Shown here one piece after another: positions 1 through 60,205 of a stretch of 64,000 nt of DNA. Every line of letters starts with the position of its first letter. Position 1 is the stretch's first letter. Origin of the DNA: Candidatus Microgenomatus sp. (GTDB lineage Bacteria > Patescibacteriota > Microgenomatia > UBA8517); the NCBI GenBank assembly GCA_020724555.1, contig DYGT01000004.1:9564-73563 (forward strand), written 5' to 3'. Position numbers and translations under genes: made by a program. The notes under the pieces are model-generated. The model had not been told where the DNA came from. It worked only from the letters and a program-made list of their open reading frames with translations, and did no database searches.

Positions 1-1395
1 GCTAAGATAAAGCTGCTTGCGTGGCGGTAAAACCCAACTATTCATATAAACCAAATGGTCCTTGTAAATTTTTAGCTTTTCTTCGCCTTTGGGTTTTTCT
101 AAATCAACCAGCGCTTCAAGTGTAGGTTTTAGCGAAACCCTCCAATAATCACGGTCCCACTTTTCATCCCAATCACCAGCAAAAACATTAAAATACACAT
201 AATGATTGGGGTGGTAAGTTATCATCCACCTCAATTGAATAGAAAATGACAAAAATAAGGCTAATATAGAAACATAAAATAATTTACTTGAATACTTATA
301 TATTTCCTGGAGCAAAAAAGCGTAAAGCAGCATAAGGCTGGGGTAGATAAAGTAAACATGTCGCCAGTCTCCATAAAGAGTTGAATTAAATACAATAATC
401 GCAACATACGAGACAATAATTACAAATAAAGGAAAAATATTATAAGCTCTTTTATACTTTATAACCAAGATAATTGTGGTCAACAATCCCCCTAACCAAC
501 CTGCTAAATAATTAAGCGGTGATGATATCGCAATCCAAACAGGAATATAATAAAACGGCAATTCAGATCCTTTTATCAAATTTCCGTTAAAGATTATCCT
601 ACTATTCCAATCGTCATATTTACTAAACTTTATAAAAGCATTAAATATTCCAACTAGAGGTTGATACCAAAGAAGCGGCCAGATAATATGCAGCAACAAA
701 AGCACCAACACGCCGTAACGCAATATTAATAATAATTTTTTTCTTATATCTATCGGCTTAACAGCTGTCCACAAAACATAAAATACGGGAATAAGCACAC
801 CCATAACCCGAGTATTTATGGCAAGTGCTGTAAATATAGAAAAAGCAAAAAGTCGTCTCTTGCTGGGTTTTTTATCATAAGAAAACATTAAGTAAGTAGC
901 AATAACAAATAAAGATAAAAATAGCGTATCTTTTATGTTATAAAAAGAATGTGCATAAATTCTGGGGTACAGCAAATATAAAATCGATACAAAAACGCTT
1001 ATTTTATCTTTTATGCCAATTAAGCCTAGTAGTTTATAGAAGCAATAGGCTGATACTAAAAACAGAGCATGAAGATATAAGTGTACTAATCTCCAGTAAA
1101 ATAGTGTTTCATGTCCCATCTCATGGGGTAAATATTCCAGCAAAAATAATGGGTATTGAGCCGCAGTTCCATAGTATAGATTCTTAATATCAATTTGCTC
1201 GTCGTATTCGTATGCACTTCTTGGGGCGTAATCTGTAAGACCAAGGAGATCAAAATATAATCCTGCTTGAAAAATTCTTCTGTTACGTTGTCCTGCCTCA
1301 TCTACTGATAAGCCATAATCATCTACGCCAAAAACTCCAATTACCGCAAAAACAATTAAAGTAAATAAGAAAAAATGTTTTTTTATTAGTGTCAT
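1..1395 (-). CDS. Partial CDS (C-terminus beyond left window edge). Polytopic membrane protein with an N-terminal signal/TM segment and an acidic first-loop motif (LSVDEAGQ). Probably another GT-C-like transferase.
   Basis: I translated the minus-strand frame by hand. ATG at 1395..1393 overlaps the TGA of the upstream gene (ATGA). There are no stop codons in 465 codons down to position 1. Translation MTLIKKHFFLFTLIVFAVIGVFGVDDYGLSVDEAGQRNRR... shows many hydrophobic stretches. The ORF track omits it because there is no stop inside the window. Confidence 0.6.
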   Translation of the reverse strand, partial: MTLIKKHFFLFTLIVFAVIGVFGVDDYGLSVDEAGQRNRRIFQAGLYFDLLGLTDYAPRSAYEYDEQIDIKNLYYGTAAQYPLFLLEYLPHEMGHETLFYWRLVHLYLHALFLVSAYCFYKLLGLIGIKDKISVFVSILYLLYPRIYAHSFYNIKDTLFLSLFVIATYLMFSYDKKPSKRRLFAFSIFTALAINTRVMGVLIPVFYVLWTAVKPIDIRKKLLLILRYGVLVLLLLHIIWPLLWYQPLVGIFNAFIKFSKYDDWNSRIIFNGNLIKGSELPFYYIPVWIAISSPLNYLAGWLGGLLTTIILVIKYKRAYNIFPLFVIIVSYVAIIVFNSTLYGDWRHVYFIYPSLMLLYAFLLQEIYKYSSKLFYVSILALFLSFSIQLRWMITYHPNHYVYFNVFAGDWDEKWDRDYWRVSLKPTLEALVDLEKPKGEEKLKIYKDHLVYMNSWVLPPRKQLYLS

Positions 1396-3089
1396 TTATG
1401 CACCAATAACATCTGCCAGGGAAAGATAATTTTGTGTTTTTTGATTTTAAAGCCGTGGCCGGCAATTGCCTTAGCAAAAGACTTTTTATTCCAGGCATTT
1501 ACATGCTCAGGATGTCTGCCTAATCTTTTTACATACTTGCCTCGGAGTAAGCTTACGATACTAAAGCTAGGTTCCCAGGGAACAGTGATAATGATATTAT
1601 TTTTGCCAATTCGTTTAAGTTCATCTAAAGCTTTGCCATAAGCGGGGATATGTTCAAGAATTTCAAGGGCAATAACTAAATCAAACTCTTTGTCTTTAAA
1701 TGGCAATTTGGTGGCATCCGCCTGGATAAACTCAACTTTTGGTAACTGTTTTTTTGCATAAATTAGCGCGGATTTGCTTAAGTCCACTCCAACAGTTTTT
1801 TTAGGCTCATAAACGCTTAAGATATGCTTTAAATCAAACCCTTCACCGCACCCTACCGACACCAGGCTTTTAGGTTTAAGGTCTATAATCTCACGCGCAA
1901 CTGCATCCTGCAATCTTTTTATCAAAAAACGCTGCAGGGGGTTACTGGATGTATGTTTTTTAAGATTAGTGCTACTCTGTTTTTTTGCATGAATTTTTTC
2001 TATAAGCGTCAGGCTTTTTTTTCTACTTTCCTCCCAGCTAAAGAGCTTGCTCCACAAGACCGCATTTTTTGCTAAAGCTTTTAGCTTTTCCGGCTGCTTT
2101 AAAAGCTCAGAAATATCATGAGCCATGGCTTGTGGGGTGTTTTCGGGGACAATAACCCCAGTTTTTTTTGTAACCGAATCAACAAGCCCCGGGGATTTGT
2201 AAGCAACAACCGGTGTGCCCATGGCATTGGCCTCTATATTTACCAGCCCCCAGCCTTCTCGCACCGAGGGATTAATTAAAATGTGCGATTTTGCCAAAAG
2301 TTTGAATTTTTCTTCATTGGAAACAAACCCCCAATAAACAAGCCTTCCTTTAAACTCGCGTTCAGCGCGCTTCAGAAGCTGCAAATATTTGCCTTCACCC
2401 TTCCCAATTATCCAAAATTTATAATTTCCTTTATCTTTTAAAATGTTAAAAACCTCAAGCACATCAAAAATTCCTTTATCCGGAGTAATTGCTCCTAAAA
2501 AAGTAATCGTTGGAATTTTTTCTTTTGAAGGCATTTTTCTGGGCTTTTTGATAATGACTCCATGCGAAATGACATGAATGTTTCGCGCCTGTATTCCCAT
2601 TTTTAATAAATCTTTTTTAGCCGAATCTGAACCTGTGATAAATGGTACTTTTTTATAGAAAGTAAAAATAAAAGGCTCAATTATGTATCCAAGTGTTCCC
2701 ACAATTTGTCTCAAAACAGGCGGTAGAGGTTGCCTGAACCACAGGTCTTTGGCTACTTCTTGGATAACCGCGATCTTAGGTACACGAATGTAGAGTGGTG
2801 TAAAAAACGGTATAAAGTGAAATTGATCAACCACCAAGTCGTATTTCTCTTTTTTGAAAAACAAATACCAAAAAAAGGCAGATACATGAACACCAAGCAG
2901 CTGTCCGCCATGTCTTATTATACGAACGCCGTCTATGGTCTCCTTTTTTGCACCCTTAAAACTTGAAGAAAAAAGAGTCACTTTATGTCCGGCCTCAATC
3001 CATCCCTTCATATGCTCGTGCATGACTTGCTCGGCGCCGCCAGCCAAAGGGTGTTTCGGATCACGCCAGGAGAAACATAAAATATTCAT
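1392..3089 (-). CDS. Bifunctional GT4 (family-1 fold) glycosyltransferase fused to a C-terminal class I SAM-dependent methyltransferase
   Basis: N-terminal GT4 motifs (NILCFSW...GGAEQ; EGWGLVNIEANAMGTPVVA). C-terminal MTase motifs (VLSVGCGEGFD...; DLVIALEILEHIP). Confidence 0.85.
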   Translation of the reverse strand: MNILCFSWRDPKHPLAGGAEQVMHEHMKGWIEAGHKVTLFSSSFKGAKKETIDGVRIIRHGGQLLGVHVSAFFWYLFFKKEKYDLVVDQFHFIPFFTPLYIRVPKIAVIQEVAKDLWFRQPLPPVLRQIVGTLGYIIEPFIFTFYKKVPFITGSDSAKKDLLKMGIQARNIHVISHGVIIKKPRKMPSKEKIPTITFLGAITPDKGIFDVLEVFNILKDKGNYKFWIIGKGEGKYLQLLKRAEREFKGRLVYWGFVSNEEKFKLLAKSHILINPSVREGWGLVNIEANAMGTPVVAYKSPGLVDSVTKKTGVIVPENTPQAMAHDISELLKQPEKLKALAKNAVLWSKLFSWEESRKKSLTLIEKIHAKKQSSTNLKKHTSSNPLQRFLIKRLQDAVAREIIDLKPKSLVSVGCGEGFDLKHILSVYEPKKTVGVDLSKSALIYAKKQLPKVEFIQADATKLPFKDKEFDLVIALEILEHIPAYGKALDELKRIGKNNIIITVPWEPSFSIVSLLRGKYVKRLGRHPEHVNAWNKKSFAKAIAGHGFKIKKHKIIFPWQMLLVHK

Positions 3090-3862
3090 GGGTTAAAAGT
3101 AAGCCAATTTTTTTTATTTTTTTCATCGTAATAATGTTTAATTCTTAGCCTATAAAATACAGCCAATGTATCCCAAAGCATTTTATAAACGGTTTTCCAG
3201 GAAATGGCGCTTGTGGCTTTATTAAAAGTGACTTCAATAGGGGCTTCATAAATCCGGTCAAAACCCAAGTATTTCGCAACCGCCAGCATTTCTATGTCCA
3301 TCGCATAGTCTTTTACCAAAAGCCTGGGCAAAATCGCATCAACCACTTCTCGTTTAAATATTTTTATCCCGCTTTGGGTATCGCTTAAGGGTAAACTAAA
3401 AAAAATACGTATCAGTAAATGGTACCCCATACTGTACAGTTTTCTTTTAAAAGGGTAATTCACGCGCGAAACGGGGTGCCTTTTGGACCCGACAACGATA
3501 TCGGCCTTATACCACTCCATATGAGCCATCAGCATCATAATGCCTTTAGGGCTTATGTCCATGCCCGCATCTAAAAACGAAATTAGCTCACCCTTTGCGT
3601 ATTTCATCCCTGTCCGCACCGCATACCCTTTACCATGATTGTCGCCGTAGCTTTTAACTTTGAGTTTTTTTGATCTTACTTTTTTTGCTTCAGTTTCGGT
3701 TTTATCCAGCTGCCCGTCAACCACACAAATAATTTCATAGTCATAAATAGCAGGTAAACCTTCGTCTAAAACAGATATAATATTTTCCAAATCCCGTTTT
3801 ATGGTTTTTTCCTGTTTGTAAGCAGGTACTACTATGGAAATAATTTGTTTATCTTTTGCCAT
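3086..3862 (-). CDS. GT2 polyprenyl-phosphate sugar synthase (DPM1/GtrB-like)
   Basis: ISIVVPAYKQE...; VVDGQLDKT; NHGKGYAVRTGM; DAGMD. 258 aa with no membrane domain. Confidence 0.75.
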   Translation of the reverse strand: MAKDKQIISIVVPAYKQEKTIKRDLENIISVLDEGLPAIYDYEIICVVDGQLDKTETEAKKVRSKKLKVKSYGDNHGKGYAVRTGMKYAKGELISFLDAGMDISPKGIMMLMAHMEWYKADIVVGSKRHPVSRVNYPFKRKLYSMGYHLLIRIFFSLPLSDTQSGIKIFKREVVDAILPRLLVKDYAMDIEMLAVAKYLGFDRIYEAPIEVTFNKATSAISWKTVYKMLWDTLAVFYRLRIKHYYDEKNKKNWLTFNP

Positions 3863-5093
3863 TTTTAAAATACGTAAAACTCATTAAGTATAATACTTGC
3901 CCGACAAACAAAACGAGCATTGCAATAAGCGACACTTGAATAACCTGAAGCAAGCTTTGGTGCCACAAAAAAATCCCACTAATCTGAAAAATTAAAATTA
4001 AGGCCGGCAATATCACCGATTTAGTCTTCCCTATTGATAGCATAAAATTCGCCAAATAATAGTCCAGAGTATAAAACGACAAAAATAGGCCCATCCAAAA
4101 GAGCTCGCTTGCGGCGGATAAATATTCCTCGCCGTACAAAAGACCTATAGCTATATCGGGTAAAAAATAGTATGTACCCACAACAAAAATAGATAAAAGC
4201 GCCGTTGCCGTGAATGTTAAATAAAACACTTGTTTAAAAGATTCTCCTTTTGCTTTTTTTCCCGAAACCAAAGGAAACATAACCATGCTGACAGGGCTTG
4301 CCGCAAAAAATATTATTTTACCCAAAGTAGAAAGGGCGGCATAAAGGCCCGCGTCATGCGGAGGAAAAAAATGTTTTACCAATATTAAATCCAGTGAAAA
4401 GAAGGCCGTAAACGCAAGGGCTTGCACAAGGGCTGGTGCAGAAAAATTTAAAAAATCTTTTAAGTCCCGGCCCGATTTTGGTTCTACAACTTCCTGTTTT
4501 ATATATATACGCGAAAACAAATAAGTAAGAGCCGTTGCCAAGGCAAGGCCTCCGATTGCACCAAAAGCGGCAAAACCAGCCAAAACCAATAATACTCCGA
4601 TTATGAGTTTACCCAAGGATGCAACTAAATTTATATTTACATATGCCCCGAAACGAAGAATTCCCTGCATTATGGATTGGTTGAGCATGGTGTTTAAACT
4701 GAAATATAAAATAGGGGCCAGTAAAACAACTATCCAAAAATTGCCAAGGTGCAAAAAATTATTAATAACGGGACTCAATAAAACAAGAATTATTGACATA
4801 TAAATTGCCAGATTGTTTATAATCTTTTTTAGACTTCCGTATAACAGCGCCAATTCCTTTTTGTCCTTACTCTCGGAGGAAAACTTAACTATGCCCACAC
4901 CCGCCGATTGAGGTACGATTGCAATCAAATAATAAAGAGAAAACATACTGGCAAGAACAGCATACTCACTTGGGCCTAAAATACGCCCCATTATTAAGTG
5001 GTAAAAATAGTTAATAACATTTATGGCGGTGCTGCCTGCAACCATTATCAAGCTGCCTGCGATTGTTTTGTTATTTTTCAGTTTTTCCTTCAT
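3849..5093 (-). CDS. PST/MOP-family flippase (Wzx/MurJ-like polysaccharide biosynthesis protein)
   Basis: 414 aa, about 12 hydrophobic segments. N-terminus GSLIMVAGSTAINVINYFYHLIMGRILGPSEYAVLASMFSL is typical of Polysacc_synt proteins. Confidence 0.6.
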   Translation of the reverse strand: MKEKLKNNKTIAGSLIMVAGSTAINVINYFYHLIMGRILGPSEYAVLASMFSLYYLIAIVPQSAGVGIVKFSSESKDKKELALLYGSLKKIINNLAIYMSIILVLLSPVINNFLHLGNFWIVVLLAPILYFSLNTMLNQSIMQGILRFGAYVNINLVASLGKLIIGVLLVLAGFAAFGAIGGLALATALTYLFSRIYIKQEVVEPKSGRDLKDFLNFSAPALVQALAFTAFFSLDLILVKHFFPPHDAGLYAALSTLGKIIFFAASPVSMVMFPLVSGKKAKGESFKQVFYLTFTATALLSIFVVGTYYFLPDIAIGLLYGEEYLSAASELFWMGLFLSFYTLDYYLANFMLSIGKTKSVILPALILIFQISGIFLWHQSLLQVIQVSLIAMLVLFVGQVLYLMSFTYFKNGKR

Positions 5094-6214
5094 GATATCC
5101 AGTAGCCGCGCGAAAACATGGACGTAGCCAAAATTAAACTTCCTAATGATACGCCGGCCAATACATACTTTACAATTTTTGGCAATCTGTTGGCAATATT
5201 TGCCATTAAGATAAATCCGGGAAACAAAACCAGAACGTATCTTGGAAGAGACGAAAAACTACCGGACAGTGTGGGCACTAAAAACCCCAAAAAAAGGTAA
5301 ATCCAATAACTAAGCCTTAATTTAAAATAGCCAAAAACCACTAAAATTAAAAATAAGACAGCAGTAAAAAGCTCTAGAAATGTTGTAAAAATTACAGGCC
5401 AATAAAAACTAAGCGCGGGAATAATTTTAAATAGATAGCGGTAAAATACCTGCGGCAGCATTACAAAACTCGCTGAGCGCTGGTTGCCATAAATCTCTAC
5501 TTTATGGATAAAAACCAGTGGATCACCGGTTTCCGAATATAAATACCAAAGATAAACTAGTAACCCCAATGCCATGACAAGGAGATATCCAAATAAACTG
5601 ACAGCTCTTTTGATATTAAAACTGTGCTTATACTGCACTAGCCATTCCACGGCAATTGAAACAATAAGCACTACGCCAATAACACGTGTGGCCGCGGCAG
5701 CCGAGACCAATAAGCTGGCAATCAAAAATTTATTTTTCCTTGCAAAGTAAAATGACCAGACGACAAACAGCAAAAACAAACTTTCTGTATAAACCGCAGC
5801 AAAATAAAATGAAGTTGGAAAAATTAAAAGTATGGTCAAAACAAAAAGAGGGTTATGGCCATCCAATTTCAATAGCTTATGTAAACCCCATACAGCCAAA
5901 AATAAACTGATGTGGGAAATAAAAATTCCGCTGATTAAATAACCCGCCAAATCAGTAGCCCAAAAACTAAAATACCTTATAAACAAGGGGTAGACCGGAA
6001 AGAAAAAATGCCGAAGCGGCCTGTAGCCTTCTTTAGCAATTGCCAAATAATGCTCTCCGTCAAAATTTGCATGCCACCAAAATTGAGGGTTATCTTGATA
6101 GTAAGTCACACCACCACCTAAAAAATTATTTTGTAAAACCAAAAAAGTTCCAAAATATACGGCAATTATTAATAAAAGTCTCCAGCCGATAATCATTAAT
6201 ATACTTTTATTCAT
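5090..6214 (-). CDS. Polytopic membrane protein, family D. PIG-V/Gpi18-like (GT76-type) GT-C mannosyltransferase candidate.
   Basis: Loop motif WHANFDGEHYLAIAKEGYRPLRHFFFPVYP resembles the conserved D-x-E-H-F-x-x-I-A-x-x-G-Y region of PIG-V-type mannosyltransferases (from memory). It is a paralog of 55020..56207. Confidence 0.5.
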   Translation of the reverse strand: MNKSILMIIGWRLLLIIAVYFGTFLVLQNNFLGGGVTYYQDNPQFWWHANFDGEHYLAIAKEGYRPLRHFFFPVYPLFIRYFSFWATDLAGYLISGIFISHISLFLAVWGLHKLLKLDGHNPLFVLTILLIFPTSFYFAAVYTESLFLLFVVWSFYFARKNKFLIASLLVSAAAATRVIGVVLIVSIAVEWLVQYKHSFNIKRAVSLFGYLLVMALGLLVYLWYLYSETGDPLVFIHKVEIYGNQRSASFVMLPQVFYRYLFKIIPALSFYWPVIFTTFLELFTAVLFLILVVFGYFKLRLSYWIYLFLGFLVPTLSGSFSSLPRYVLVLFPGFILMANIANRLPKIVKYVLAGVSLGSLILATSMFSRGYWIS

Positions 6215-7284
6215 TGAAGCGCTTTTTTATAAACTTTTATAGTTTCTAGTGCTGTTTTGTCCCAACTAAAATTTTTCAGTCGTTTTGATCCTTCCCTTAT
6301 CATGCTTTCTCTTAGACCTTGGTCATTTAAAAGGCTTTCAATTTTATTTATTAAATCGTCAATGTCTAAAGGTTTAAAATAAACGGCTCCTTTTTCCAAA
6401 ACCTCAACCATAGCTTGGGTTTGGGAAGCCACAACCGGGACATCACAAGCCAAAGCCTGAAGCGGAGGCAGCCCGAACCCTTCATAAAGCGAAGGTTGGC
6501 AATAGATACTCGCCAGATTATATATACCGACCAAGTCCGCGTTTTCCACAAATCCCAAAGTACTAACATGCTTTGATTCAAATAATTTTGCTAAGCTTTG
6601 GTAATGGGCAAGCTCCGGATGGGTTTGGCCTGATAAGCTACGAACGACATCTCTTATTCCTTTTCCCTTAAAATTCGCAATTGCATGATTAATATTCCCT
6701 GCACTTTTCCCTACAATAACAAGATGGGTCTTATTTTTTATACATGCGCGCGTTAATAATTCTATATTTTTGTTGTAATTAATGTCCCCCACATATAGCA
6801 CAAATTTATCGGGTAAATTATATTTATCTTTTATGGCCTTTAGTTTTTCTTTATCACCCACTTTTTTGTAAATCGGGTCGAAAGCCAAATATATAGGCAC
6901 TATTTTATCTTCCGGTACGTCAAGAAAACGGATTATATCTTTCTTGCTGGTTTCTGAATCTGTAATAACAAACTTAACTTTTTTAAGAGAATTTATTTGC
7001 TTTTTTAAATTTATCTTGCCTCTGATTCCCGGTTTATAATGCTTTGGGTATAAAAGCGGGATGACGTCGTGTATGGTAACTACAACTGGTTTTGAAAAAT
7101 TATCAGGAAGTGTATGAAAAAACAAATCAAAATAGGTATAATGAAGGACATCAAAAGAACCGTCCTCAACTAAGGTGACACTTTGGGTATTTTTTAAAGC
7201 TTCACAAAGTAGCCGCGTATATTCCCCGATACCACGTACCGCATGCCCACCCATCAAAGGGGTGTTGTCTATTTTAATTTTCAT
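6211..7284 (-). CDS. GT4 glycosyltransferase (Glycos_transf_1)
   Basis: C-terminal motif YCQPSLYEGFGLPPLQALACDVPVVAS. Confidence 0.85.
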   Translation of the reverse strand: MKIKIDNTPLMGGHAVRGIGEYTRLLCEALKNTQSVTLVEDGSFDVLHYTYFDLFFHTLPDNFSKPVVVTIHDVIPLLYPKHYKPGIRGKINLKKQINSLKKVKFVITDSETSKKDIIRFLDVPEDKIVPIYLAFDPIYKKVGDKEKLKAIKDKYNLPDKFVLYVGDINYNKNIELLTRACIKNKTHLVIVGKSAGNINHAIANFKGKGIRDVVRSLSGQTHPELAHYQSLAKLFESKHVSTLGFVENADLVGIYNLASIYCQPSLYEGFGLPPLQALACDVPVVASQTQAMVEVLEKGAVYFKPLDIDDLINKIESLLNDQGLRESMIREGSKRLKNFSWDKTALETIKVYKKALQ

Positions 7285-8034: not shown

Positions 8035-8051
8035 AATTCATTTTAAACACT

Positions 8052-8915: not shown

Positions 8916-8918
8916 AAT

Positions 8919-15505: not shown

Positions 15506-15526
15506 TATTTTATTATAACGATATAT

Positions 15527-28837: not shown

Positions 28838-28868
28838 AATTTGATTTTATCACGCTGGCAACATTTAT

Positions 28869-47028: not shown

Positions 47029-47050
47029 AATATAACAAAATATAACAAAA
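47029..47050. repeat. Short tandem direct repeat (ATATAACAAAA x2) in the intergenic gap
   Basis: aatataacaaaatataacaaaa read from the sequence. Confidence 0.4.
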
Positions 47051-47087
47051 ATAAAATTAAGGACATGGAGCAAAAAATAGAATTTAA

Positions 47088-52749: not shown

Positions 52750-54314
52750 TGTGTTTGTGGATTTGAGTGAATAAGTTTAAATATGGTTATCCCATCGACT
52801 TGCCAGGTTTTTTCAATCTGAGACCAGCCAAAATTAGCAACTTCGGCTTTGGGGTTATGCGTTGGGTCGCACTCACTTTCCGGTTTTTCGCAAACAACAA
52901 AAAGCTGATCAGCAATTGTTTCCTCTGCACGCAAAGGATCAATATCTACGACCCCCGTATTCCATTTTTCCAAAAAATACTGGTAAGCATCCTCATAGTT
53001 GCGTTCGGCAATTACCGCTAGATTAAATGGTTGATCACCCGCTTCTTTTCGGATAGATTCAGATACTCTGGCAGTACGCCTTAACTGATAATTCGGAGGA
53101 TCTTTTAGTGGTATATTGGTTAAATCCGCCCAGGCTATAAATATTATTGCCAGCCCGGAAATCCAAATTCCGCGGATTTTATGGTTATCTATCAGTTGAT
53201 TAAGCATGCCCCCCAAAAGCAAAAATGGTGCCGGGTATAAAAAACCAAAATAATGATCATAAATATGCTGTTTGTATAACCCCAAACCCATTAAGCCAAA
53301 GCCAATCCAAATAAGAATCAGTAAATACGCAGATTTCTCTTTGGGGTGAATATTTATTTTTTTGTCCTTGCCCCAAAGCCACAACAGGACTCCTGCAAGC
53401 CCAACTGCCACCCATTTGCCAAACGTTTCTTCTCTACCAGTAACAACCCGCGCTACAAACTGCTGCCACAAAGGCCACATCTGGGGTATAGCATTCCAGG
53501 GACGCGCAGACACAGTGGTTTGGCGCACTGTAAAAAATGTCTTCATGGCGTTAAAATTTATAAAATTGTGTCGCAAGTCAAAAATTAAAAGCGGGGACAT
53601 GAGAAACGCAAAAACAAAAAAAGAGAATATTGAATATCGAAGATAGAGAGAAGTATTTTTAAGATATCTGGCTTCTATTAGAGCTAAAAACCAAATTGCA
53701 CCTAAAGCTGGCGCCAAAAGGAGACCTAAATAGTGAGACTGTAAAACAAATGCAAATGCTATGGCAGCAAAAACAAGCCAATAATATTTACGCCTCTTCC
53801 ACACTTGCCAGATAGCCCAGAAGCACAAAAGTGAAAAAAACGGCATAATATTAGGGTTCCAGGATGCGCGCGAATAAATAATCACGGTGGGAGAAATACT
53901 ATACAAAAAAGCGGCAATTAGACCGGCTTTTACTCCAAACCAGCTCCTACCTGCCCACCAGATAAAACCGACGGTTACCACTCCCAATAAAGCGACAAAT
54001 ACGGATGGACCCACTGGCGAAAAATTTGCGAAAAGAAGAGCAGGGGCAATTAGATAATAATATAATGGCCCAAGATACATGTTGCCGATTGACGTCCCCG
54101 GCCCGATCAAAATTGGGTCAAAATCTACCAAAAGCCGTCTGACAATTATCGCATCCCTGCCCTCATCGCCCAAAAACGTCATATATCCGGCAATTTTATA
54201 AAGACGCAAAAACGAAGCCAGTATTAAAATAATGCCAATTAAAATAGCTTCAATTTTGTGAGATTTAATCCAGCTTTTTATTTTTGTCTTCGCCATGATT
54301 TTTGTCTTCGCCAC
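52746..54314 (-). CDS. ArnT-like GT-C membrane glycosyltransferase, family C paralog C4. The annotated start is GTG, with an in-frame ATG 6 codons downstream at 54296.
   Basis: FLGDEGRDAIIVRRLLVDFDPILIGPGTSIGNMYLGPLYYYL. The N-terminus MAKTKIMAKTKI arises from an 18-bp tandem duplication. Confidence 0.55.
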   Translation of the reverse strand: MAKTKIMAKTKIKSWIKSHKIEAILIGIILILASFLRLYKIAGYMTFLGDEGRDAIIVRRLLVDFDPILIGPGTSIGNMYLGPLYYYLIAPALLFANFSPVGPSVFVALLGVVTVGFIWWAGRSWFGVKAGLIAAFLYSISPTVIIYSRASWNPNIMPFFSLLCFWAIWQVWKRRKYYWLVFAAIAFAFVLQSHYLGLLLAPALGAIWFLALIEARYLKNTSLYLRYSIFSFFVFAFLMSPLLIFDLRHNFINFNAMKTFFTVRQTTVSARPWNAIPQMWPLWQQFVARVVTGREETFGKWVAVGLAGVLLWLWGKDKKINIHPKEKSAYLLILIWIGFGLMGLGLYKQHIYDHYFGFLYPAPFLLLGGMLNQLIDNHKIRGIWISGLAIIFIAWADLTNIPLKDPPNYQLRRTARVSESIRKEAGDQPFNLAVIAERNYEDAYQYFLEKWNTGVVDIDPLRAEETIADQLFVVCEKPESECDPTHNPKAEVANFGWSQIEKTWQVDGITIFKLIHSNPQTQ

Positions 54315-55003
54315 AAAGTGAATAAATCTTTAAAACTTTGAATAATAACATTAAAATTACGCCCTGTGGGTTTTCCCCCGGCGCGTGGATAATGCGTAAC
54401 CGGCACTTCAACTATTTTAGCACCGTTTTGTTTAGCTTTAATCAATAATTCGCTGCTTATAAATGCTCCGCGTTCACTTTCGAGCTTGGGAATTTTATCC
54501 ACAACTTCTTTTCTTATTAGCTTAAAACCGCAATCAATATCGCGCACATGCAGTCCAAAAAGTAAAAATACCAAAAGCTCCCAAAGCTTGGATGTAATGA
54601 TTACACTTTTTTTAACCTGTCTTTTTTTGTAGTATCCCACTATTAAATCGGCGTTGGTTTTTTGTTGCTTGTCTATAAATTTTGTGATTTCCGAAAAGTC
54701 AAACTGGCCGTCTGAATCCGTAAAAGTAATCCACGGGTATTGGGCCGCGTATATTCCGCTCTTAAAAGCCGCTCCATAGCCTCGGTTGGGATTGTGGTGA
54801 ATAACGCGAATGTTTTTATTTTCGCGGGCAAGCTCATCTGCGATTTTTCCCGTACTGTCGGTAGACCCGTCATCCACAATTATTATTTCCCATAAATCGA
54901 ATTTGTCCTTTAAAACCTTTAGAGCTTTTCTAACCGTATTTTCAATATTTTCCTCTTCGTTATAGGCAGGAAAAAAGACGCTTATTTCTTTAAAAGAATC
55001 CAT
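54278..55003 (-). CDS. GT2 polyprenyl-phosphate sugar synthase (DPM1/GtrB-like)
   Basis: ISVFFPAYNEEENI; WEIIIVDDGSTDSTGKIA; NRGYGAAFKSG; TDSDGQ. Confidence 0.8.
   Translation of the reverse strand: MDSFKEISVFFPAYNEEENIENTVRKALKVLKDKFDLWEIIIVDDGSTDSTGKIADELARENKNIRVIHHNPNRGYGAAFKSGIYAAQYPWITFTDSDGQFDFSEITKFIDKQQKTNADLIVGYYKKRQVKKSVIITSKLWELLVFLLFGLHVRDIDCGFKLIRKEVVDKIPKLESERGAFISSELLIKAKQNGAKIVEVPVTHYPRAGGKPTGRNFNVIIQSFKDLFTLWRRQKSWRRQK
54281..54316. repeat. Imperfect 18-bp tandem direct repeat (tttttgtcttcgccatga / tttttgtcttcgccacaa) spanning the C4 start codons and the 3' end of the upstream GT2 gene
   Basis: Read directly from the sequence, 16/18 identity. It produces the duplicated MAKTKI peptide. 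Confidence 0.7.
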
Positions 55004-55019
55004 ATTTGCAGTCTAGCAT

Positions 55020-56207
55020 ATGAGCGAAAAATATTATAATATTGGGCTACTTATGAAAAAAATGGGCAAATACTTCCCTTTGATTTTTTTCACCTTAATA
55101 CCCACTTTACTTATCTGGTTGCCGTTTTTTTTTCGCTTAGATAGTTTTTGGAATATCCCTCTCCCTCGTGATGGTATGCTAACTATAGTTTCTAATTACG
55201 ACGGTCCACTCTATATCGCGGTCGCAAAAACACTATACAACAAAGAAGCACTAGCACAATTTTCTTTTGATCTACCTTTGGAATATTACGCTGCTCACTT
55301 TCCCTTGTTTCCCCTTTTAATTAGACTTCTCGGGAACGTATTAGTATACCCATACGCCATGCTTTTAGTCACTGTTTTCGGCTCTTTTTTGTCAATAGTT
55401 TATTTTTACAAATTAATAAAAAATTATGTAAGACCTCAAAAAGATGCCTTTTGGGCAACATTTGTTTTTTCCATTTTCCCGGCGCGTTGGCTAATTGTAC
55501 GCTCCGTAGGCAGCCCGGAGCCTTTGTTTGTAGGAGCCATAATAGCCTCAATATACTACTTTAAAAATAAAAAATATTTCTGGGCAGGAGTTTGGGGAGC
55601 ACTGGCGCAGTTAACTAAATCTCCCGGGATACTTCTTTTTATAGCCTATATCGGAGCTATTATCTTGCCCGAAATCCGAAAACTTGCTGCAACTCGCTTA
55701 GAGCACTGGATTAAAACCATCGAATTTAAATCCTTTTGGGTATTTTTAATACCGGCCTCCTTACTGGGTGTTTTTGTTTTTTATTCACAAACCATGAACG
55801 ACTTTTTTGCTTATTTCCACTCGGGCGATAACATCCATTTGGTTTTTCCCCCTTTTCAAGTTTTTAATTACCAAGCAAGCTGGGTAAACACACATTGGCT
55901 TGAGGAGATAATCATATTTTACCTTCTGGCGGCTTGGGGAGTACTTAAGCTTATTGAAAAAAAAGAAGAAACGCTTGCTTGGTTTACCGGAATCTTTTTG
56001 CTTTCCATTTTTTTTGTTTCTCACCGCGATATAATCCGCTATGCGCTTCCAATTATTCCCTTTTTATACGTAGGCTATAGCGAAATAATTACCAGCCAAA
56101 AATTTAAAATTGCCTTTATATTAATTATCCTACCCATATATTTATTTTCTTTGGCGTTTATATCTAAAAATGTGATGCCAATTTCTGATTGGACCATGCT
56201 CCTTTAA
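55020..56207 (+). CDS. Polytopic membrane protein, family D paralog D2 (PIG-V/Gpi18-like GT-C candidate)
   Basis: NYDGPLYIAVAKTLYNKEALAQF...HFPLFPLLIR parallels D1 DGEHYLAIAKEGY...FFFPVYPLFIR. Confidence 0.5.
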   Translation: MSEKYYNIGLLMKKMGKYFPLIFFTLIPTLLIWLPFFFRLDSFWNIPLPRDGMLTIVSNYDGPLYIAVAKTLYNKEALAQFSFDLPLEYYAAHFPLFPLLIRLLGNVLVYPYAMLLVTVFGSFLSIVYFYKLIKNYVRPQKDAFWATFVFSIFPARWLIVRSVGSPEPLFVGAIIASIYYFKNKKYFWAGVWGALAQLTKSPGILLFIAYIGAIILPEIRKLAATRLEHWIKTIEFKSFWVFLIPASLLGVFVFYSQTMNDFFAYFHSGDNIHLVFPPFQVFNYQASWVNTHWLEEIIIFYLLAAWGVLKLIEKKEETLAWFTGIFLLSIFFVSHRDIIRYALPIIPFLYVGYSEIITSQKFKIAFILIILPIYLFSLAFISKNVMPISDWTMLL

Positions 56208-56449
56208 AAAAACTTGAGAGCCTTTGAAAGCGAAAACTTCTTAAAATAGATACATGGCAGAAAGAAGACCCGGTCTCAATTCCAGTGAAAGAAGATTACA
56301 CAGAGCAAGAACGGTATTTCTTGCAGCAACGAACCCAGACGGGACATTATTGGTACCTTGGGGCTCAGCTCAACCAAGAAACGGCTTCTCAAAAGAAACG
56401 CCAAAAACTATTAATATTGAACACGAGCGGCCGCCGGAGGTAAAAACCA

Positions 56450-57313
56450 TTACTGTATACGAAGCCCAAGCCGCTGATTGACTAAAGCCACCTGTGTTTG
56501 AGCAACTTTGCCACCCATAAGCTTTTGGCGGTACACATTTACGATTTCATAAACACCGCTTCTTAGCTTCCCGGCGTTGGCTAATTGGGCAATTTCAGCA
56601 AAACTCAAAAACCTATACTCCTTCATGCGGAAACTCGAAAAGCCTTGTGTTCCAGCAATTTCAACCGGTATTTCCAGATGGTAAATAAAAAGCGAAATAT
56701 CCAGTATTTTTATTTTAAAAATCAAATCAAGGTCTTTGTCCGAAATTTTTACGGGGACTACGCCATTGACTGCATTTTTGGAAAAAACCTCTTGCTGAAG
56801 TACACGCATCGCGGAAATCGTTTTATTTTCTCCCTTTTTGGAAAAAGTCATGGGGATGCTGATGGCGCCTCTTTTTTTACCATAAACAAAATTCGGCATG
56901 GAAATGTCTCTGGCTGTTAAAATTTTTTGGGCTTCATTTTTAACGGTTATAACCAGACCGGTAGCGGCACGCCTGGTAATGTCTTGCTTTATGTGGTTAT
57001 AAATCCTGTGCAAGGTAATTTTGGAGGTTTGAAAACTCGGGGGAAGTTTTTTATAAAGCTCTTCTAATGGCAGTTTTTCTTCTGCCAAATACTCCATAAA
57101 CGCCAATGCTTCGCTCATTTTTCCATGAGGACCCGCGGCTTTTACGATATTGTTTTTGTCCAGAAGCCTATGATACGAAGCCGGTGAAATAGGCAAAGCG
57201 TAATAATGTTTTTTTAAAACTGCGTCAACAGAACCATATTTTAAATACTGGGAAATTAAAAATTTATTAAAATCTTCCTCTTTTTTGCGGGGATCTATAT
57301 TCATCATGAACAA
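56450..57313 (-). CDS. Hypothetical soluble protein (287 aa)
   Basis: Long ORF with no recognisable motif. Only the ORF itself supports it. Confidence 0.4.
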   Translation of the reverse strand: MFMMNIDPRKKEEDFNKFLISQYLKYGSVDAVLKKHYYALPISPASYHRLLDKNNIVKAAGPHGKMSEALAFMEYLAEEKLPLEELYKKLPPSFQTSKITLHRIYNHIKQDITRRAATGLVITVKNEAQKILTARDISMPNFVYGKKRGAISIPMTFSKKGENKTISAMRVLQQEVFSKNAVNGVVPVKISDKDLDLIFKIKILDISLFIYHLEIPVEIAGTQGFSSFRMKEYRFLSFAEIAQLANAGKLRSGVYEIVNVYRQKLMGGKVAQTQVALVNQRLGLRIQ

Positions 57314-57338
57314 ATATTATATCGTTTTTACAGAAAGT

Positions 57339-58544
57339 TTATGTTTTAATTACCCGCTTCCCACCAAACATGCGTGGCAACTTCCAGCTTTTCCAAATAA
57401 CGACATTGTACATAAAATAATTATAAGGAAGTACCAAAAACACGATAATGAACGGTAGCAACAATTGGCGGTATTGTTGGCCCAAGAGACTCACCCCTAA
57501 CGAGCCTACCACTGTTTGAATTAAAAGCGCCCCTATTGACGTGCCGTTAAACTGGATAAATTTCAAAAATAACTCACGCGCTCCGGTAATTTTTTCTTTT
57601 TTAAATGTCCAAATATTGTTAAAGGTAAAATTGTTTATTATGGCCAATTCCGTAGAACCCGCCCAGGCGAATACTTCCGGCCAATGCAAACGGCTGGCAA
57701 AAATATAAAGAAAAAACGCATTCACCAGATATCCGGCAAAACCAACCGTTCCGAATTTAATAAACTTTTGCTTGTCTTTTATTCCCAAAATTATGGCTAC
57801 ACGAAAAGTTGATATCATCTCTTTCATACTAAATTTAGAAGTCTCCTCCGTGCGGGGCGCAAACTCCAGAGGGACCTCTTTCACATTTTTAGCGTTTTTT
57901 ATTGATTGATACAAAAGATCTACTTTATAGGCAAACCGTTCGGGCTCCATCAGGCTGTCAAGGTCAATTTTGTCCAAAACGCCTTTTACTTTAGTGAGGC
58001 GAAAACCGGTAGTAAGGTCGTGTAATTTTGGCTTAAGCAAAACCAAACGGATAAATAAATTGCCGAAATAAGATATGGCTTTTCTGTGGATTGCCCACTC
58101 AGAAGGAACCGACCCGCCGGGTATATAACGGCTACCAATAACATAATCCGAACCGTTTAAGTAAGCCTCGACCATGGGCTTCACAAACCTGGGCGGGTGC
58201 TGAAAATCCGCATCCATTTCCATAACAGCATCCGCATTAAGCTTATCTTTGGCATATTTCATACCCCTTATGTATGCCCAGCCAAGGCCTTGTTTAGTTG
58301 ACTCCAAAAGATGAAGATTTTTATATTTTTTCATCTGAGACCGGACAATGTCTCCCGTCCCGTCGTCGGTGCCTTCCGCTGTCAAATCGTTGACGACCAA
58401 AAGATGCATATCTGCAGCAATTTTGGGAAACTCTTTTTCAAACAAAACAGGTACCATTTTACTAATATTTTCAGCCTCCTTATAGGTAGGCATAATAATT
58501 ACGACTTTTTGTTTTAAATTACTCACCATAATCCAATATATCAC
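57339..58544 (-). CDS. GT2 polyprenyl-phosphate sugar synthase (DPM1/GtrB-like) fused to a C-terminal GtrA-like 4-TM domain
   Basis: VVIIMPTYKEAENI; LLVVNDLTAEGTDDGTGDIV; GLGWAYIRGM; MDADFQH. C-terminal GTVGFAGYLVNAFFLYIF...ELAIINNFTFNNIWTFK is the GtrA signature. Confidence 0.85.
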   Translation of the reverse strand: MIYWIMVSNLKQKVVIIMPTYKEAENISKMVPVLFEKEFPKIAADMHLLVVNDLTAEGTDDGTGDIVRSQMKKYKNLHLLESTKQGLGWAYIRGMKYAKDKLNADAVMEMDADFQHPPRFVKPMVEAYLNGSDYVIGSRYIPGGSVPSEWAIHRKAISYFGNLFIRLVLLKPKLHDLTTGFRLTKVKGVLDKIDLDSLMEPERFAYKVDLLYQSIKNAKNVKEVPLEFAPRTEETSKFSMKEMISTFRVAIILGIKDKQKFIKFGTVGFAGYLVNAFFLYIFASRLHWPEVFAWAGSTELAIINNFTFNNIWTFKKEKITGARELFLKFIQFNGTSIGALLIQTVVGSLGVSLLGQQYRQLLLPFIIVFLVLPYNYFMYNVVIWKSWKLPRMFGGKRVIKT

Positions 58545-58546
58545 AC

Positions 58547-60205
58547 CTAATTGTTTTTACGAAAGTACATTTGCACTTTATCTTCTTCGATTTGTGTGGT
58601 GGGTGTTTTAAAAAGATGCTCAGGCAGCTCTGCAATATTGTTATAGCCGTAATCCAAAATATCCAAAGTTACTTTTTCAAAATCTCCCTTAGCAATAATT
58701 TTATTTAATTCATCTTCATAAAAATGGTTTTTTCTGGGGATAACCACGTCAACTTCCTCATCTTTAAAATCTTCAGAATACCCATTCTCCACAACCACTT
58801 TGCTGTCAAAATAAAAAACATAAGTATAACTTGCATAATTTGTGGCAATAACAAGATCTTTTTTATTTTTATACCTACCGTCAATTTCAGTGAGGATTAA
58901 ATCCATAGGCCCCACATAATCGTACGTCAACTCATACACATTTCCCCACCAAGATGGTAATTTAAAAATGCTACTTATAACTAAAATAGACACTAAAAAA
59001 TATTGATATGCTTTTTTTGCTTCAGGCGATAAAACCCTCAAGATACAAATGCTATCGACTAATATTGAAGCTATACCAAGAGGAATAAGAAGAAAATAGT
59101 AACGTATAAAAAGTACGGGTACGCGTGTGATAACTACTATATAAATTACATAAATAATAAAAAAATAAATGCTAATATTTAATAAATTATTCTTTAAAAT
59201 TTCTTCTTTAAATTTTTTATTCAAACTTCGCGAAAACCCCGCTCGGCGGGGATAAAGCAATGCCGTGAACGAACTTTGAGAATAAGTAATATAAAATAAA
59301 ATAATTTTTGTAGTTAAAACTACAAATAAATACTCATGTTTAAATAAATACTCTAAAGTTTTTCCCAAATTCCAAAGTTGAAAGCGAAAGCTAAAATTTT
59401 TACTGCCAAAAAACAAAAGGGAAGTAAAATCAGTAAGCTCCTTTGAAGTTTTAAACGTTTCAAAAAATAAAGATAAAGGCAGAGTAATCAAACCAATAAA
59501 TATGAGCATGCCTAATTTCTTTTTAGATACTTTCTTGTATAAAAGCGACAAAAAAACTTCAAAAATAAAAGTAGAAAACAAAACAATATAAAATGCCGGA
59601 TGATATGACAAATAAAAAAATAGGCTGCTAATTATCAGTAAAAACGCCCATAGCCATTTGCGCGAATATTTTTCCTTAAATTTCAAATAGGCAGATAGAT
59701 AAAACGAGAAAGATAAAATAACAAGTGAGTAATACCTCGCTTCAATAGAATGAAGTGTGTATGAAACAGATAATATAAGAAGCATAAATAAAGCTGCAGC
59801 AAACCTTGGTTTTTCCTTATTATCCAGATAGCGGCTGATAGTAAAATATAAAATTAGCACACCACCTATTGATGCAAAAGCAAATGGAGTGCGGATAAGA
59901 GCGGTTTTTAAATATAAATCATTGGTTAAATTGCCCAAAAAAACAAACGGAGCAGCCACATAAAATTCAGCCCATCCATGGCAAAGATATAAATTTAAGC
60001 TATCTTTTACACAGATAGAATTACCTTTTTTTAAGGTAACATTTAAATTTGTTTTGCCGTCATCCACAAGAGGCACACCATAACGAAGAACCCTTTGCGC
60101 CATCGCCCCAGTGTTGCCTTCATCGTTCCACAGCAAATAATCATCTATCCGTACTAAAATATTTAAGCTAAAAAGAAAAAATATAATTAGCGCCAGATAA
60201 CGCAT
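58547..60205 (-). CDS. Large polytopic membrane protein (552 aa), unclassified. Possible GT-C acceptor-transferase partner of the adjacent GtrB-GtrA fusion.
   Basis: First-loop acidic segment WNDEGNTGAMAQRVLRYGVPLVDDGKTN. Many TM segments plus a C-terminal soluble domain. The assignment rests on context only. Confidence 0.35.
   Translation of the reverse strand: MRYLALIIFFLFSLNILVRIDDYLLWNDEGNTGAMAQRVLRYGVPLVDDGKTNLNVTLKKGNSICVKDSLNLYLCHGWAEFYVAAPFVFLGNLTNDLYLKTALIRTPFAFASIGGVLILYFTISRYLDNKEKPRFAAALFMLLILSVSYTLHSIEARYYSLVILSFSFYLSAYLKFKEKYSRKWLWAFLLIISSLFFYLSYHPAFYIVLFSTFIFEVFLSLLYKKVSKKKLGMLIFIGLITLPLSLFFETFKTSKELTDFTSLLFFGSKNFSFRFQLWNLGKTLEYLFKHEYLFVVLTTKIILFYITYSQSSFTALLYPRRAGFSRSLNKKFKEEILKNNLLNISIYFFIIYVIYIVVITRVPVLFIRYYFLLIPLGIASILVDSICILRVLSPEAKKAYQYFLVSILVISSIFKLPSWWGNVYELTYDYVGPMDLILTEIDGRYKNKKDLVIATNYASYTYVFYFDSKVVVENGYSEDFKDEEVDVVIPRKNHFYEDELNKIIAKGDFEKVTLDILDYGYNNIAELPEHLFKTPTTQIEEDKVQMYFRKNN

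Follow-up and report, generated by a model that had tools for sequence, protein, structure and literature searches.

A lineage-conserved array of GT-C glycosyltransferase genes in a Microgenomates bacterium, probably an assembly line for an envelope glycoconjugate

Positions 1-60205 of the DNA studied here, a stretch of 64,000 nucleotides (the window) from contig DYGT01000004.1 of Candidatus Microgenomatus sp., form a dense locus in which polytopic membrane proteins, most of them candidate glycosyltransferases of the GT-C type, predominate. A preliminary description had read this locus as a hyper-diversified set of independent transfers, that is, a combinatorial system of surface-glycan diversification. 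Our analysis points to a different picture, to which we would give a probability of about 0.6: an ancient, lineage-conserved and multi-step assembly line for an envelope glycoconjugate in a Microgenomates bacterium, probably one related to Woesebacteria, and not a generator of diversity. [quoted passage not shown] A flippase of the multidrug/oligosaccharidyl-lipid/polysaccharide (MOP) superfamily would flip the oligosaccharide, and the STT3-fold GT-C protein 31976 (genes are named by their first position in the window) would transfer it to an envelope acceptor, which could be a wall polymer or a protein of the S-layer or of pili. The remaining GT-C paralogs would each add one residue or linkage outside the membrane from polyprenyl-phosphate-monosaccharides, and the final structure would be modulated by genes inserted in a lineage-specific manner.

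The comparison with related genomes carries most of this reading. One genome per GTDB species was scanned with an alignment of family A, one of the GT-C families described below, which yielded 596 relatives, and positional counts were taken from the best 80 loci. Almost all of these 80 belong to Microgenomates-group Patescibacteria, including the named lineages Woesebacteria, Shapirobacteria, Daviesbacteria, Amesbacteria and Blackburnbacteria, and the closed chromosomes among the relatives measure 0.6-0.95 Mb, in agreement with the small compact genome supposed beforehand. Many metagenome-assembled genomes of relatives have a gene content typical of Microgenomates and carry the title 'uncultured Gammaproteobacteria bacterium' (binchicken, SRP co-assembly series), probably a placeholder taxonomy in the public records, which we treated as unreliable. 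Two to seven tandem family A genes occur in all 80 loci, usually with the same partner genes, and best-match mapping recovers the conserved order 19030, 17793, 13847, (C), 12176, 10549, 8919, 8052, 5090, 3849, 3086, where C stands for family C. The triplet 12176>10549>8919 is adjacent in 65 of the 80 loci, and pairwise gene orders are kept in 75/75, 74/76, 69/69, 31/31, 21/21 and 23/23 loci. A core can be drawn from these data, which opens with four to seven GT-C genes of family A and goes on with a GT2 gene of the group GT2b, a PIG-V-like GT-C gene, a MOP flippase gene and the DPMS-like 3086, which is the most conserved core gene (orthologs 52-72% identical). This core, from 20.8 to 3.1 kb, is collinear with 1:1 orthologs in Woesebacteria and other Microgenomates. 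The core and the 54.3-20.7 kb section are each collinear with Woesebacteria at ~40-63% identity, and the latter section follows the closed Woesebacteria chromosome CP066693.1 (916,571 bp) at 45-63%. Median ortholog identity in the 80 loci is 37-53% versus ~30% between paralogs of the same genome; since orthologs reach 45-63% along the closed chromosome and positions are fixed, the duplications would be ancient and the roles of their products fixed, and from these comparisons we read the paralogs as ancient and subfunctionalised. The search for syntenic loci proposed in the preliminary description thus found a common gene order in the 80 Microgenomates loci and in CP066693.1.

These data bear directly on the diversification reading, in which strain-level variability would serve phage evasion or host switching. 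It would account for the many paralogs, distributed over at least eight families, and for insertions and rearrangements relative to other genomes (15527/17203, 28869/30462, 38439-44094 and the relocated 36016/36834), and glycosylation clusters of the Haloferax type are described as varying like serotypes (PMC5867893). However, such a system would be expected to bring with it recent duplications, polymorphism among strains or elements for switching, and ancient paralogs in fixed positions are found instead: orthology is strictly positional and 1:1, with collinearity across the named candidate lineages; the ~30% identity of the paralogs speaks against recent duplication; five sequencing runs or samples gave contigs of 99.7-100% identity without variant alleles inside the locus; and there are no tandem, inverted or long direct repeats to drive switching or recombination. 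Searches of the window for inverted, tandem and long repeats returned only A/T-rich chance matches and one region of 71 nt (63-79% identity, in a conserved-motif region), the longest DNA repeat present, and no signature of phase variation, inversion or repeats was found in it. For the plus-strand pair 36016-38507 a surrounding switch, invertible or phase-variable, was also considered and rejected, as no inverted repeats flank it. Diversification is therefore improbable, and the hyper-diversified, independent and combinatorial system of the preliminary description is not sustained: many paralogs need not mean diversification, and here they are ancient and positionally fixed.

The same sequences show that the contig is genuine, with no mis-assembly, an outcome that the preliminary description had named as fatal to its proposal. 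Contigs of Joint Genome Institute (JGI) sample 3300029893 and of several SRA runs match the window at 99.7-100% identity, and positions 1-18034 and 50855-64000 are reproduced at 100% by other runs. A chimeric or collapsed contig of repeated paralogs might be suspected where two contigs of the same JGI sample, Ga0246236_1000463 and Ga0246236_1000207, overlap or end at 27606-27978, the junction of two GT2 paralogs, but an independent contig (L011, SRR5011273) spans 26724-35056 at 99.99% and bridges this break at 27.6-28.0 kb. Moreover, the paralogs are too divergent (~30% amino acid identity) for assembly collapse, near-identical repeats are absent from the window and the closed Woesebacteria chromosome has the same gene order, all of which makes an artefact extremely hard to believe.

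The locus comprises 47 open reading frames (ORFs), 27 of them polytopic with 374-789 amino acids (aa), where at least 26 in several families had been counted before. Two are MOP flippases and 25 are GT-C candidates, 24 of them with reasonable support and one, 1-1395, probable. All-against-all BLASTP groups 8919, 10549, 12176, 13847, 15527, 19030, 28869 and 36834 as family A (~550 aa, pairwise identity ~30%), which has 30462 and 45346 as divergent members (hhalign 100%). Family B (22311, 47878, 50271 and 52746) is homologous to A (hhalign 97.6-100%), family C (38439, 40092 and 41743) scores above threshold with PTPS_related and is linked to YfhO (hhalign 99.2%), family D joins 5090 and 55020 (hhalign 100% to each other), and family E joins 17793 and 44094 (hhalign 99.7%), with a weak GT87 signal; the YfhO family has a single member, 23824, of 789 aa. 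The hhalign values come from targeted pairwise comparisons of profiles built from homologs in related loci. When the membrane ORFs were searched with Pfam hidden Markov models (HMMs), as had been suggested, PMT_2 scored above the gathering threshold in 11 ORFs and below it in six, and the other GT-C clan models above threshold were PTPS_related (three ORFs) and YfhO (one); for 1-1395, 5090, 17793, 22311, 30462, 44094, 50271 and 55020 the link to GT-C lies below threshold or comes through orthologs or hhalign. PF02366 (PMT) exceeded its threshold only in 12176, 13847, 28869 and 45346, always with a lower score than PMT_2. The protein O-mannosyltransferase (GT39) class was rejected for the set, given that no window ORF matched the MIR domain in Pfam and that the best PDB match is ArnT, not Pmt; in sequence, ArnT 5EZM is the closest solved structure of family A, at a marginal E of 3.5e-4.

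Every GT-C candidate has 5-11 hydropathy segments and an acidic motif just after the first transmembrane (TM) helix: the invariant motif is DE in loop 1 of family A, W..DE among 58547 and its family and HD among the family of 31976, and families B, C, D, E and YfhO likewise have D/E motifs behind TM1. Two of the candidates were also considered as Wzy polymerases or O-antigen ligases and rejected, 5090 because its orthologs, named 'Gpi18-like mannosyltransferase' by JGI, carry PIG-V, PMT_2 and GT87 domains, and 17793 because of its homology with 44094 and with family A in its N-terminal part. The fold was tested with AlphaFold2 for the two Pfam-less families, 58547 and 31976, using alignments of database homologs, and at significant scores both predicted models matched GT-C structures only. 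The best structural match of 58547 in Foldseek was ArnT, further ones being STT3, ALG12, ALG9, AglB, DPY19, PglB, AftA and Pmt4 with nothing else significant, and the 31976 model (predicted local distance difference test, pLDDT, 86.3) shows both an STT3-type TM fold and a C-terminal globular domain. The 58547 family had seemed very rare (30 matches in a word-indexed search), a result overturned by an exhaustive HMM search, in which the cluster representatives numbered 522 at E<=1e-30 and rose to 2605 at E<=1e-3, and the 31976-like family counts >1,373 homologs. From the predicted structures, both would be GT-C families of considerable size for which Pfam and NCBIfam have no model.

Five DPMS/GtrB-like GT2 genes, the candidate donor synthases, lie at 3086, 43379, 47088, 54278 and 57339, as first described; the GtrA fusion then proposed for 57339 calls for a correction. 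This protein aligns full-length with archaeal DPMS 5MLZ (E 2e-36), so that its GtrA_DPMS_TM region is better read as the native DPMS membrane domain and not necessarily as a fused GtrA. PF04138 occurs in the window solely as this C-terminal domain and no free-standing GtrA was found there, nor does the 99% coding density leave room for small GtrA genes; a three-component GtrABC module was rejected on the absence of a separate GtrA. The other four synthases have 241-268 aa and 0-1 hydrophobic segment, with a TM domain only in 57339. The best NCBIfam matches of the set are PgfS, PpgS, Dol-P hexose transferase, ArnC and AglJ; for 54278 the top rank goes to PgaC/IcaA, ArnC and the others listed in Table 1 being also among the best. 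Co-location with these five genes suggests that the GT-C set uses polyprenyl-phosphate-sugar donors, and homology and predicted fold are consistent with the earlier view of GT-C-type enzymes served by DPM1/GtrB-like synthases. Pfam and NCBIfam also bear out the previous counts of seven further transferases, here four GT2 and three family 4 glycosyltransferases (GT4), of three methyltransferase domains and two flippases of the polysaccharide transporter (PST) type of MOP. The closest solved relatives of the GT2b group (8052, 27162 and 27941) are the N-terminal parts of GmaR and SunS. No match to PF00953, PF02397, Wzy_C or Wzz was obtained in window ORFs >=150 aa or in the flanks (~-8.6 kb to +71.5 kb), which extends the earlier failure to see a WecA/WbaP-like initiator, Wzy or Wzz. 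This is not a classical O-antigen or capsule locus of the phosphoglycosyltransferase/Wzy/Wzz kind, and a Wzx/Wzy-dependent pathway was rejected: Wzx-like flippases are present, but initiator, Wzy and Wzz were not found within ~80 kb.

In regard to the transfer step, the order MOP flippase, 31976-like gene, GT2 genes, GT4 and YfhO is found in the window and in all four other neighbourhoods examined; the cassette as we draw it also takes in family B, a methyltransferase and a GT2 after YfhO. The wider order shared by the neighbourhoods of 31976 homologs is 52746, 50271, 47878, 47088, 45346, C, 34484, 31976, GT2 genes, 26156, 23824, 22311, 21668, 20766. Variations on the cassette are the presence of two GT2 genes in the window versus three in relatives, the interposition of a methyltransferase and two family A genes in the window, and a 585-aa gene between the flippase and the 31976 homolog in L098. 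The arrangement would fit a lipid-linked-oligosaccharide pathway in which en-bloc transfer comes last. A WWDYG-like pattern was present neither in the 32 members of the 31976 family nor in any window ORF, and no STT3 match in Pfam or NCBIfam was obtained for 31976; the absence of WWDYG led us to reject a canonical N-oligosaccharyltransferase (GT66).

Several points weigh against an assembly line. Its donors, its acceptors and the order of its steps are all deduced from sequence, and gene order is a sign of conservation, not of sequential action on one product. Some diversification does occur, as ~11 window genes are lineage-specific insertions (15527, 17203, 28869, 30462, 33640, the relocated 36016/36834, 38439, 40092, 43379, 44094 and 49337). 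An initiating phosphotransferase could be encoded elsewhere in the genome, the search having covered ~80 kb only. Finally, all NCBIfam scores of the GT2 proteins are far below the equivalog cut-offs, and the C-terminal membrane anchor of GtrB and ArnC is absent from four of the five donor synthases; as anchor-less DPM1 and Ppm1 types exist, this does not exclude a polyprenyl-phosphate synthase function.

A further possibility, which we regard as somewhat unlikely, is that the conserved set is not one assembly line but a collection of parallel glycosylations, each GT-C forming with a nearby donor synthase a Gtr-like module that adds one sugar to a different target (S-layer protein, pilins, lipoteichoic-like polymers or peptidoglycan), in the manner of PMT/TMTC paralogs or of the CsbB/GtrB-YfhO systems of Gram-positive bacteria. 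Every DPMS-like GT2 has indeed a GT-C neighbour: 3086 is one gene away from 5090, with flippase 3849 in between, 43379 lies by 44094 and 41743, 47088 by 47878 and 45346, 54278 by 52746 and 55020, and 57339 by 58547, whose homologs in other phyla are also found near a ~246-aa GT2 and a PMT_2 protein. Moreover, YfhO/PgfM2-type enzymes are known decorators, and NCBIfam ties 23824 to PgfM2. On the other hand, the conserved core has four to seven GT-C genes and a single donor synthase, 3086, so the pairing into modules is not 1:1, and the cassette of flippase, GT2 and GT4 genes implies a lipid-linked oligosaccharide and not just single sugars. Parallel glycosylation and the assembly line are inseparable by sequence data alone.

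The layout of the locus is extremely compact. Its coding share is 99.1%, the genes from 1 to 35965 all lie on the minus strand and are nowhere more than 31 bp apart, as originally noted, and overlaps occur at 31 of the 42 same-strand junctions, ten of them of 4 bp. Scans for sigma-70 promoters and terminators, run in three 20-kb blocks, gave a signal equal to the shuffle background and are thus uninformative on operon structure; tRNA and Rfam scans of the window were empty. The GC content of the window is 35-41%. Only two stretches of the locus, 36016-38507 and 55020-56207, are on the plus strand, and GC skew is negative in each 2-kb bin (-0.02 to -0.19), with a cumulative skew that falls steadily across the window, in line with the near-total placement of genes on the minus strand; a closed Microgenomates genome is reported to have a strong strand-composition disparity (PMC7143001).

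To the left the locus carries on beyond the window, where contig L010 completes the 519-aa protein of 1-1395 and adds a 609-aa PMT_2 protein, three GT2, one GT4 and a >1048-aa protein (L010:19207-21698, ~window -6.1 to -8.6 kb). The latter, without a Pfam match, has ~8 TM helices in its N-terminal part with HD as the motif behind TM1, and its C-terminal region is large and extracytoplasmic, an architecture that resembles giant GT-C enzymes of the AftD/YfhO type. To the right the locus ends at trmD, followed in the flank by a two-component system, a CAP-domain protein, a 917-aa M23 peptidase and a nucleotidyltransferase/HepT-like toxin-antitoxin pair (L001/L002:4343-5143, ~window 66.4-67.2 kb). 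Beside the histidine kinase, run SRR8925729 has a gene for a UbiA-family prenyltransferase (L004:256-1083; 99.7% identical over the shared part), and other assemblies have at that spot a 282-aa ORF with no Pfam match (L001:5326-6174, ~window 65.4-66.3 kb). The decaprenyl-phosphate phosphoribosyltransferase that takes part in making the arabinose donor of mycobacteria is an enzyme of the UbiA type. The genes of the locus are collected in Table 1, together with a nucleotidyltransferase gene just beyond it that could possibly supply NDP-sugars.

Table 1. Genes of the locus and of its immediate right-hand neighbour, with window positions and supporting matches (SAM, S-adenosylmethionine; SDR, short-chain dehydrogenase/reductase; OST, oligosaccharyltransferase)
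Positions	Strand	Assignment	Evidence and remarks
1-1395	-	N-terminal 465 aa of 519-aa polytopic protein; probable GT-C	PMT_2 18.3 bits, below threshold; hhalign 92.6% to family D
1392-3089	-	GT4 fused to SAM methyltransferase	Glycos_transf_1 109.9 bits; Methyltransf_11 69.1 bits
3086-3862	-	DPMS/GtrB-like GT2, candidate polyprenyl-phosphate sugar synthase	GT2 79.6 bits; PDB DPMS 5MLZ (E 2.6e-13), GtrB
3849-5093	-	MOP/PST (Wzx-like) flippase 1	Polysacc_synt_3 61.7 bits; adjoins 5090 and 3086, conserved
5090-6214	-	Family D GT-C, PIG-V/Gpi18-like	No Pfam match of its own; orthologs PF04188, PF13231, PF09594
6211-7284	-	GT4	Glycos_transf_1 101.4 bits
7285-8034	-	SDR oxidoreductase, sugar dehydrogenase-like	adh_short_C2 214 bits; NCBIfam glucose 1-dehydrogenase subfamily 241.6 bits (cutoff 215)
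8052-8915	-	GT2 (GT2b), directly after family A array, conserved	GT2 74.2 bits; order 8919>8052 in 69/69 loci
8919-10562, 10549-12210, 12176-13846, 13847-15505, 15527-17206	-	Five tandem family A GT-C	PMT_2 30-57.7 bits; first four have 1:1 positional orthologs; 15527 has none, window-specific insertion
17203-17796	-	197-aa, fragment-like; matches family A residues ~270-421 only	hhalign 99.1%
17793-19037	-	Family E GT-C, GT87-like	hhalign 94.5% to N-terminal part of family A, 99.7% to 44094
19030-20766	-	Family A GT-C	PMT_2 42.5 bits
20766-21671	-	GT2	GT2 81.9 bits
21668-22318	-	SAM methyltransferase	Methyltransf_11 73 bits; same-position ortholog in L092 and L094
22311-23834	-	Family B GT-C	blastp family; hhalign 97.6% to family A
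23824-26193	-	YfhO-family GT-C	YfhO 96.8 bits; NCBIfam PgfM2 E 8.8e-16
26156-27184	-	GT4	Glycos_transf_1 77.7 bits
27162-27941, 27941-28837	-	Two GT2b	GT2 65.7 and 70.1 bits
28869-30461	-	Family A GT-C	PMT_2 43.6 bits
30462-31979	-	Divergent family A	PMT_2 23.8 bits; hhalign 100%
31976-33658	-	Pfam-less GT-C, STT3/AglB/PglB-like fold, OST-type C-terminal domain; candidate en-bloc transferase	AlphaFold2
33640-34527	-	SAM methyltransferase	Methyltransf_23 78.6 bits
34484-35965	-	MOP/PST (Wzx-like) flippase 2	Polysacc_synt_3 176.8 bits; NCBIfam MOP flippase, O-glycosylation Wzx, TuaB
36016-36837	+	273-aa protein, 6 TM; conserved partner of 36834-type family A gene	No Pfam/NCBIfam match
36834-38507	+	Family A GT-C	PMT_2 50.6 bits
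38439-40091, 40092-41750, 41743-43395	-	Three tandem family C GT-C	PTPS_related 28.4, 39.7, 34.5 bits (threshold 26.4)
43379-44107	-	DPMS/GtrB/ArnC-like GT2	GT2 115 bits; PDB GtrB E 2e-16, P. furiosus DPMS, ArnC
44094-45362	-	Family E GT-C, GT87-like	GT87 E 0.053; hhalign 99.7% to 17793, 92.4% to family D
45346-46926	-	Divergent family A GT-C	PMT_2 41.6 bits, PMT 31.2 bits; hhalign 100%
47088-47894	-	DPMS/GtrB-like GT2	GT2 97.3 bits; NCBIfam PgfS, Dol-P hexose transferase, ArnC
47878-49374	-	Family B GT-C	PMT_2 39.3 bits
49337-50284	-	MATCAP/DUF1704-like putative metallopeptidase, window-specific insertion	PF08014 28.4 bits (threshold 27); absent from L092, L094
50271-51830	-	Family B GT-C	PMT_2 23 bits; blastp family
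51751-52749	-	DHH/DHHA1 phosphoesterase within array	DHH 56.1 bits; same position in L094
52746-54314	-	Family B GT-C	PMT_2 40.4 bits; hhalign 100% to family A
54278-55003	-	DPMS/GtrB/ArnC-like GT2	GT2 122.8 bits; NCBIfam ArnC, Dol-P hexose transferase, AglJ, PpgS
55020-56207	+	Family D GT-C, PIG-V-like	hhalign 100% to 5090 family; PMT_2 20.9 bits
56450-57313	-	287-aa soluble protein	No Pfam or NCBIfam match
57339-58544	-	Archaeal-type DPMS-like polyprenyl-phosphate hexose synthase candidate, GT2 + 4-TM GtrA_DPMS_TM	Pfam GT2, PF04138; PDB 5MLZ
58547-60205	-	Pfam-less GT-C, ArnT-like fold	AlphaFold2 pLDDT 89.7; Foldseek ArnT, STT3, ALG12, ALG9, PglB, AftA
60855-61577	-	Sugar-1-phosphate nucleotidyltransferase, just beyond the locus	NTP_transferase 191.5 bits

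Some of the smaller genes deserve a comment. The short protein 17203 is without the catalytic N-terminal module of family A, has homologs in only 3 of the 80 loci and, like the adjoining 15527-17206, does not occur in L012, the closest relative; it may be what is left of a duplication or insertion, or else an accessory protein that acts alone. The pair 36016/36834, on the opposite strand to its neighbours and ~17 kb from 19030 in the window, adjoins the 19030 ortholog in both L013 and L019 and lies at another place of the array in L026, and L014 has a 36016 homolog that does not adjoin a strong 36834 ortholog. Both the MATCAP-like 49337 and the DHH/DHHA1 gene 51751 are embedded between family B GT-C genes.

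Bacteria of the candidate phyla radiation (CPR) have genomes <1 Mb and lack most biosynthesis. Nonetheless, the lineage studied here keeps at least 60-70 kb, ~7-8% of a ~0.9-Mb genome (the size of complete relatives), almost wholly for what we take to be extracytoplasmic glycosylation. Its retention across deep divergence points to a complex and conserved surface glycoconjugate as part of the core biology of these cells, one that may contribute to the integrity of the envelope, to host attachment or to resistance against phages. The locus also offers an ordered parts list for experiments, with five candidate lipid-sugar donors, the flippase/STT3-fold cassette and the two model-less GT-C families. 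The component families are of known kinds. Among the searchable papers, none was found linking GT-C, PMT or mannosyltransferases to CPR, Patescibacteria, Microgenomates or Woesebacteria, and a collinear super-locus of ~25 GT-C genes in a genome <1 Mb, with its flippase/STT3-fold cassette and its two model-less families, appears to be undescribed so far. The preliminary claim that no such locus had been described thus stands for this literature, but the locus is not unique, being present in hundreds of public genomes. Papers on CPR and Microgenomates note just numerous glycosyltransferases (PMC5220378, PMC8080830, PMC7143001), with 20 in a Parcubacterium (PMC5220378) and 29 in a Microgenomates genome, a number termed 'particularly notable' (PMC7143001).

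Among known systems, units comparable with parts of the locus are GtrABC, CsbB/GtrB with YfhO and the Pgf system of S. mutans (PgfS, PgfM1, PgfE and PgfM2), in which a GT2 makes undecaprenyl-phosphate-sugar and GtrC, YfhO or PgfM transfers the sugar outside. In this line, PgfM2 is the best NCBIfam match of the YfhO protein 23824, and the window GT2 proteins best match PgfS and GtrB. However, those are modules of two to four genes for one decoration, whereas the modules of the window sit in a 47-gene locus without free-standing GtrA, and its GT2 proteins are without the C-terminal helices of GtrB. The ArnC/ArnT pair is approached by family A, whose nearest solved structure is ArnT, by 58547, with ArnT as best structural match, and by the GT2 set, with ArnC among the top matches; but the similarity of family A to ArnT is marginal and ArnA, ArnB and ArnD are absent from the locus. 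To our knowledge, these bacteria have neither outer membrane nor lipid A.

The only other setting known to us with ~20 GT-C enzymes of several families sharing Dol-P-sugar donors is the lumen of the eukaryotic endoplasmic reticulum (ALG3/6/8/9/10/12, PMT1-7, PIG-V/M/B/Z, STT3 and DPM1), and ALG9, ALG12, ALG3, ALG6, Pmt and GPI-MT-I are among the structural matches obtained here. The differences are that the host of the window is a bacterium with a genome <1 Mb, that its genes are clustered and apparently co-transcribed, that MIR domains are absent and that family membership is at the superfamily level only. By its high number of GT-C enzymes the locus most resembles the assembly of mycobacterial and corynebacterial arabinogalactan and of lipoarabinomannan (LAM) and lipomannan (LM). 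In those bacteria EmbA/B/C, AftA-D, MptA-C, PimE and Pmt act outside the membrane, each GT-C paralog being thought to make one linkage of the wall glycan, with Ppm1 and decaprenyl-P-arabinose as donor sources and donors coming from DPM1-like GT2 enzymes. The combination of many GT-C enzymes with DPM1-like donor synthases is what we propose for the window, and AftA, AftB, AftD, EmbA and PimE are among the structural matches of the 31976 model, as are AftA, EmbA and EmbC among those of 58547. The mycobacterial GT-C genes, however, are dispersed over a 4.4-Mb genome and belong to families GT53, GT85, GT87 and GT89, whereas the window has ~25 GT-C genes in one 99%-coding locus, mostly PMT_2/ArnT-, YfhO- and PIG-V-like, and an arabinose donor pathway of the DprE1 or UbiA type was not seen there.

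The list of parts is that of the Agl pathway of Haloferax volcanii (cluster members AglJ, G, I, E, D, P, F, R, B and S), where AglJ, a DPM1-like GT2, primes dolichol monophosphate, the growing glycan is lengthened by AglG/I/E and receives a methyl group from AglP, a Wzx-like protein helps with flipping, AglB (STT3) serves as transferase and the last mannose is added from Dol-P-Man by the GT-C AglS (PMC3871713). The common parts are DPM1-like GT2 enzymes for charging polyprenyl monophosphate, more GT2/GT4 enzymes, a SAM methyltransferase, a sugar-1-phosphate nucleotidyltransferase, a Wzx-like flippase, an STT3-fold transferase and a GT-C for the last sugar, drawn from lipid-P-sugar, with no need for a WecA/WbaP-type initiator, and the NCBIfam matches of the window include AglJ, Dol-P hexose transferase and Agl23, all far below equivalog thresholds. 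The differences lie in the bacterial host, in the presence of ~25 GT-C enzymes rather than two, and in an STT3-like protein without WWDYG and STT3 Pfam match. Taken to its end, this likeness would make the locus the bacterial counterpart of archaeal and eukaryotic-style glycosylation, primed on monophosphate without a phosphoglycosyltransferase and flipped by MOP proteins, with en-bloc transfer by the WWDYG-less STT3-fold family of 31976 and ~20 further GT-C enzymes building a mycobacterial-like wall glycopolymer. As a whole this proposal is tentative and unlikely; if true, the STT3-fold family would form a class of its own among oligosaccharyltransferases or ligases, new to science, and the glycan would be the layer on which these ultra-small epibionts mainly rely for structure and recognition.

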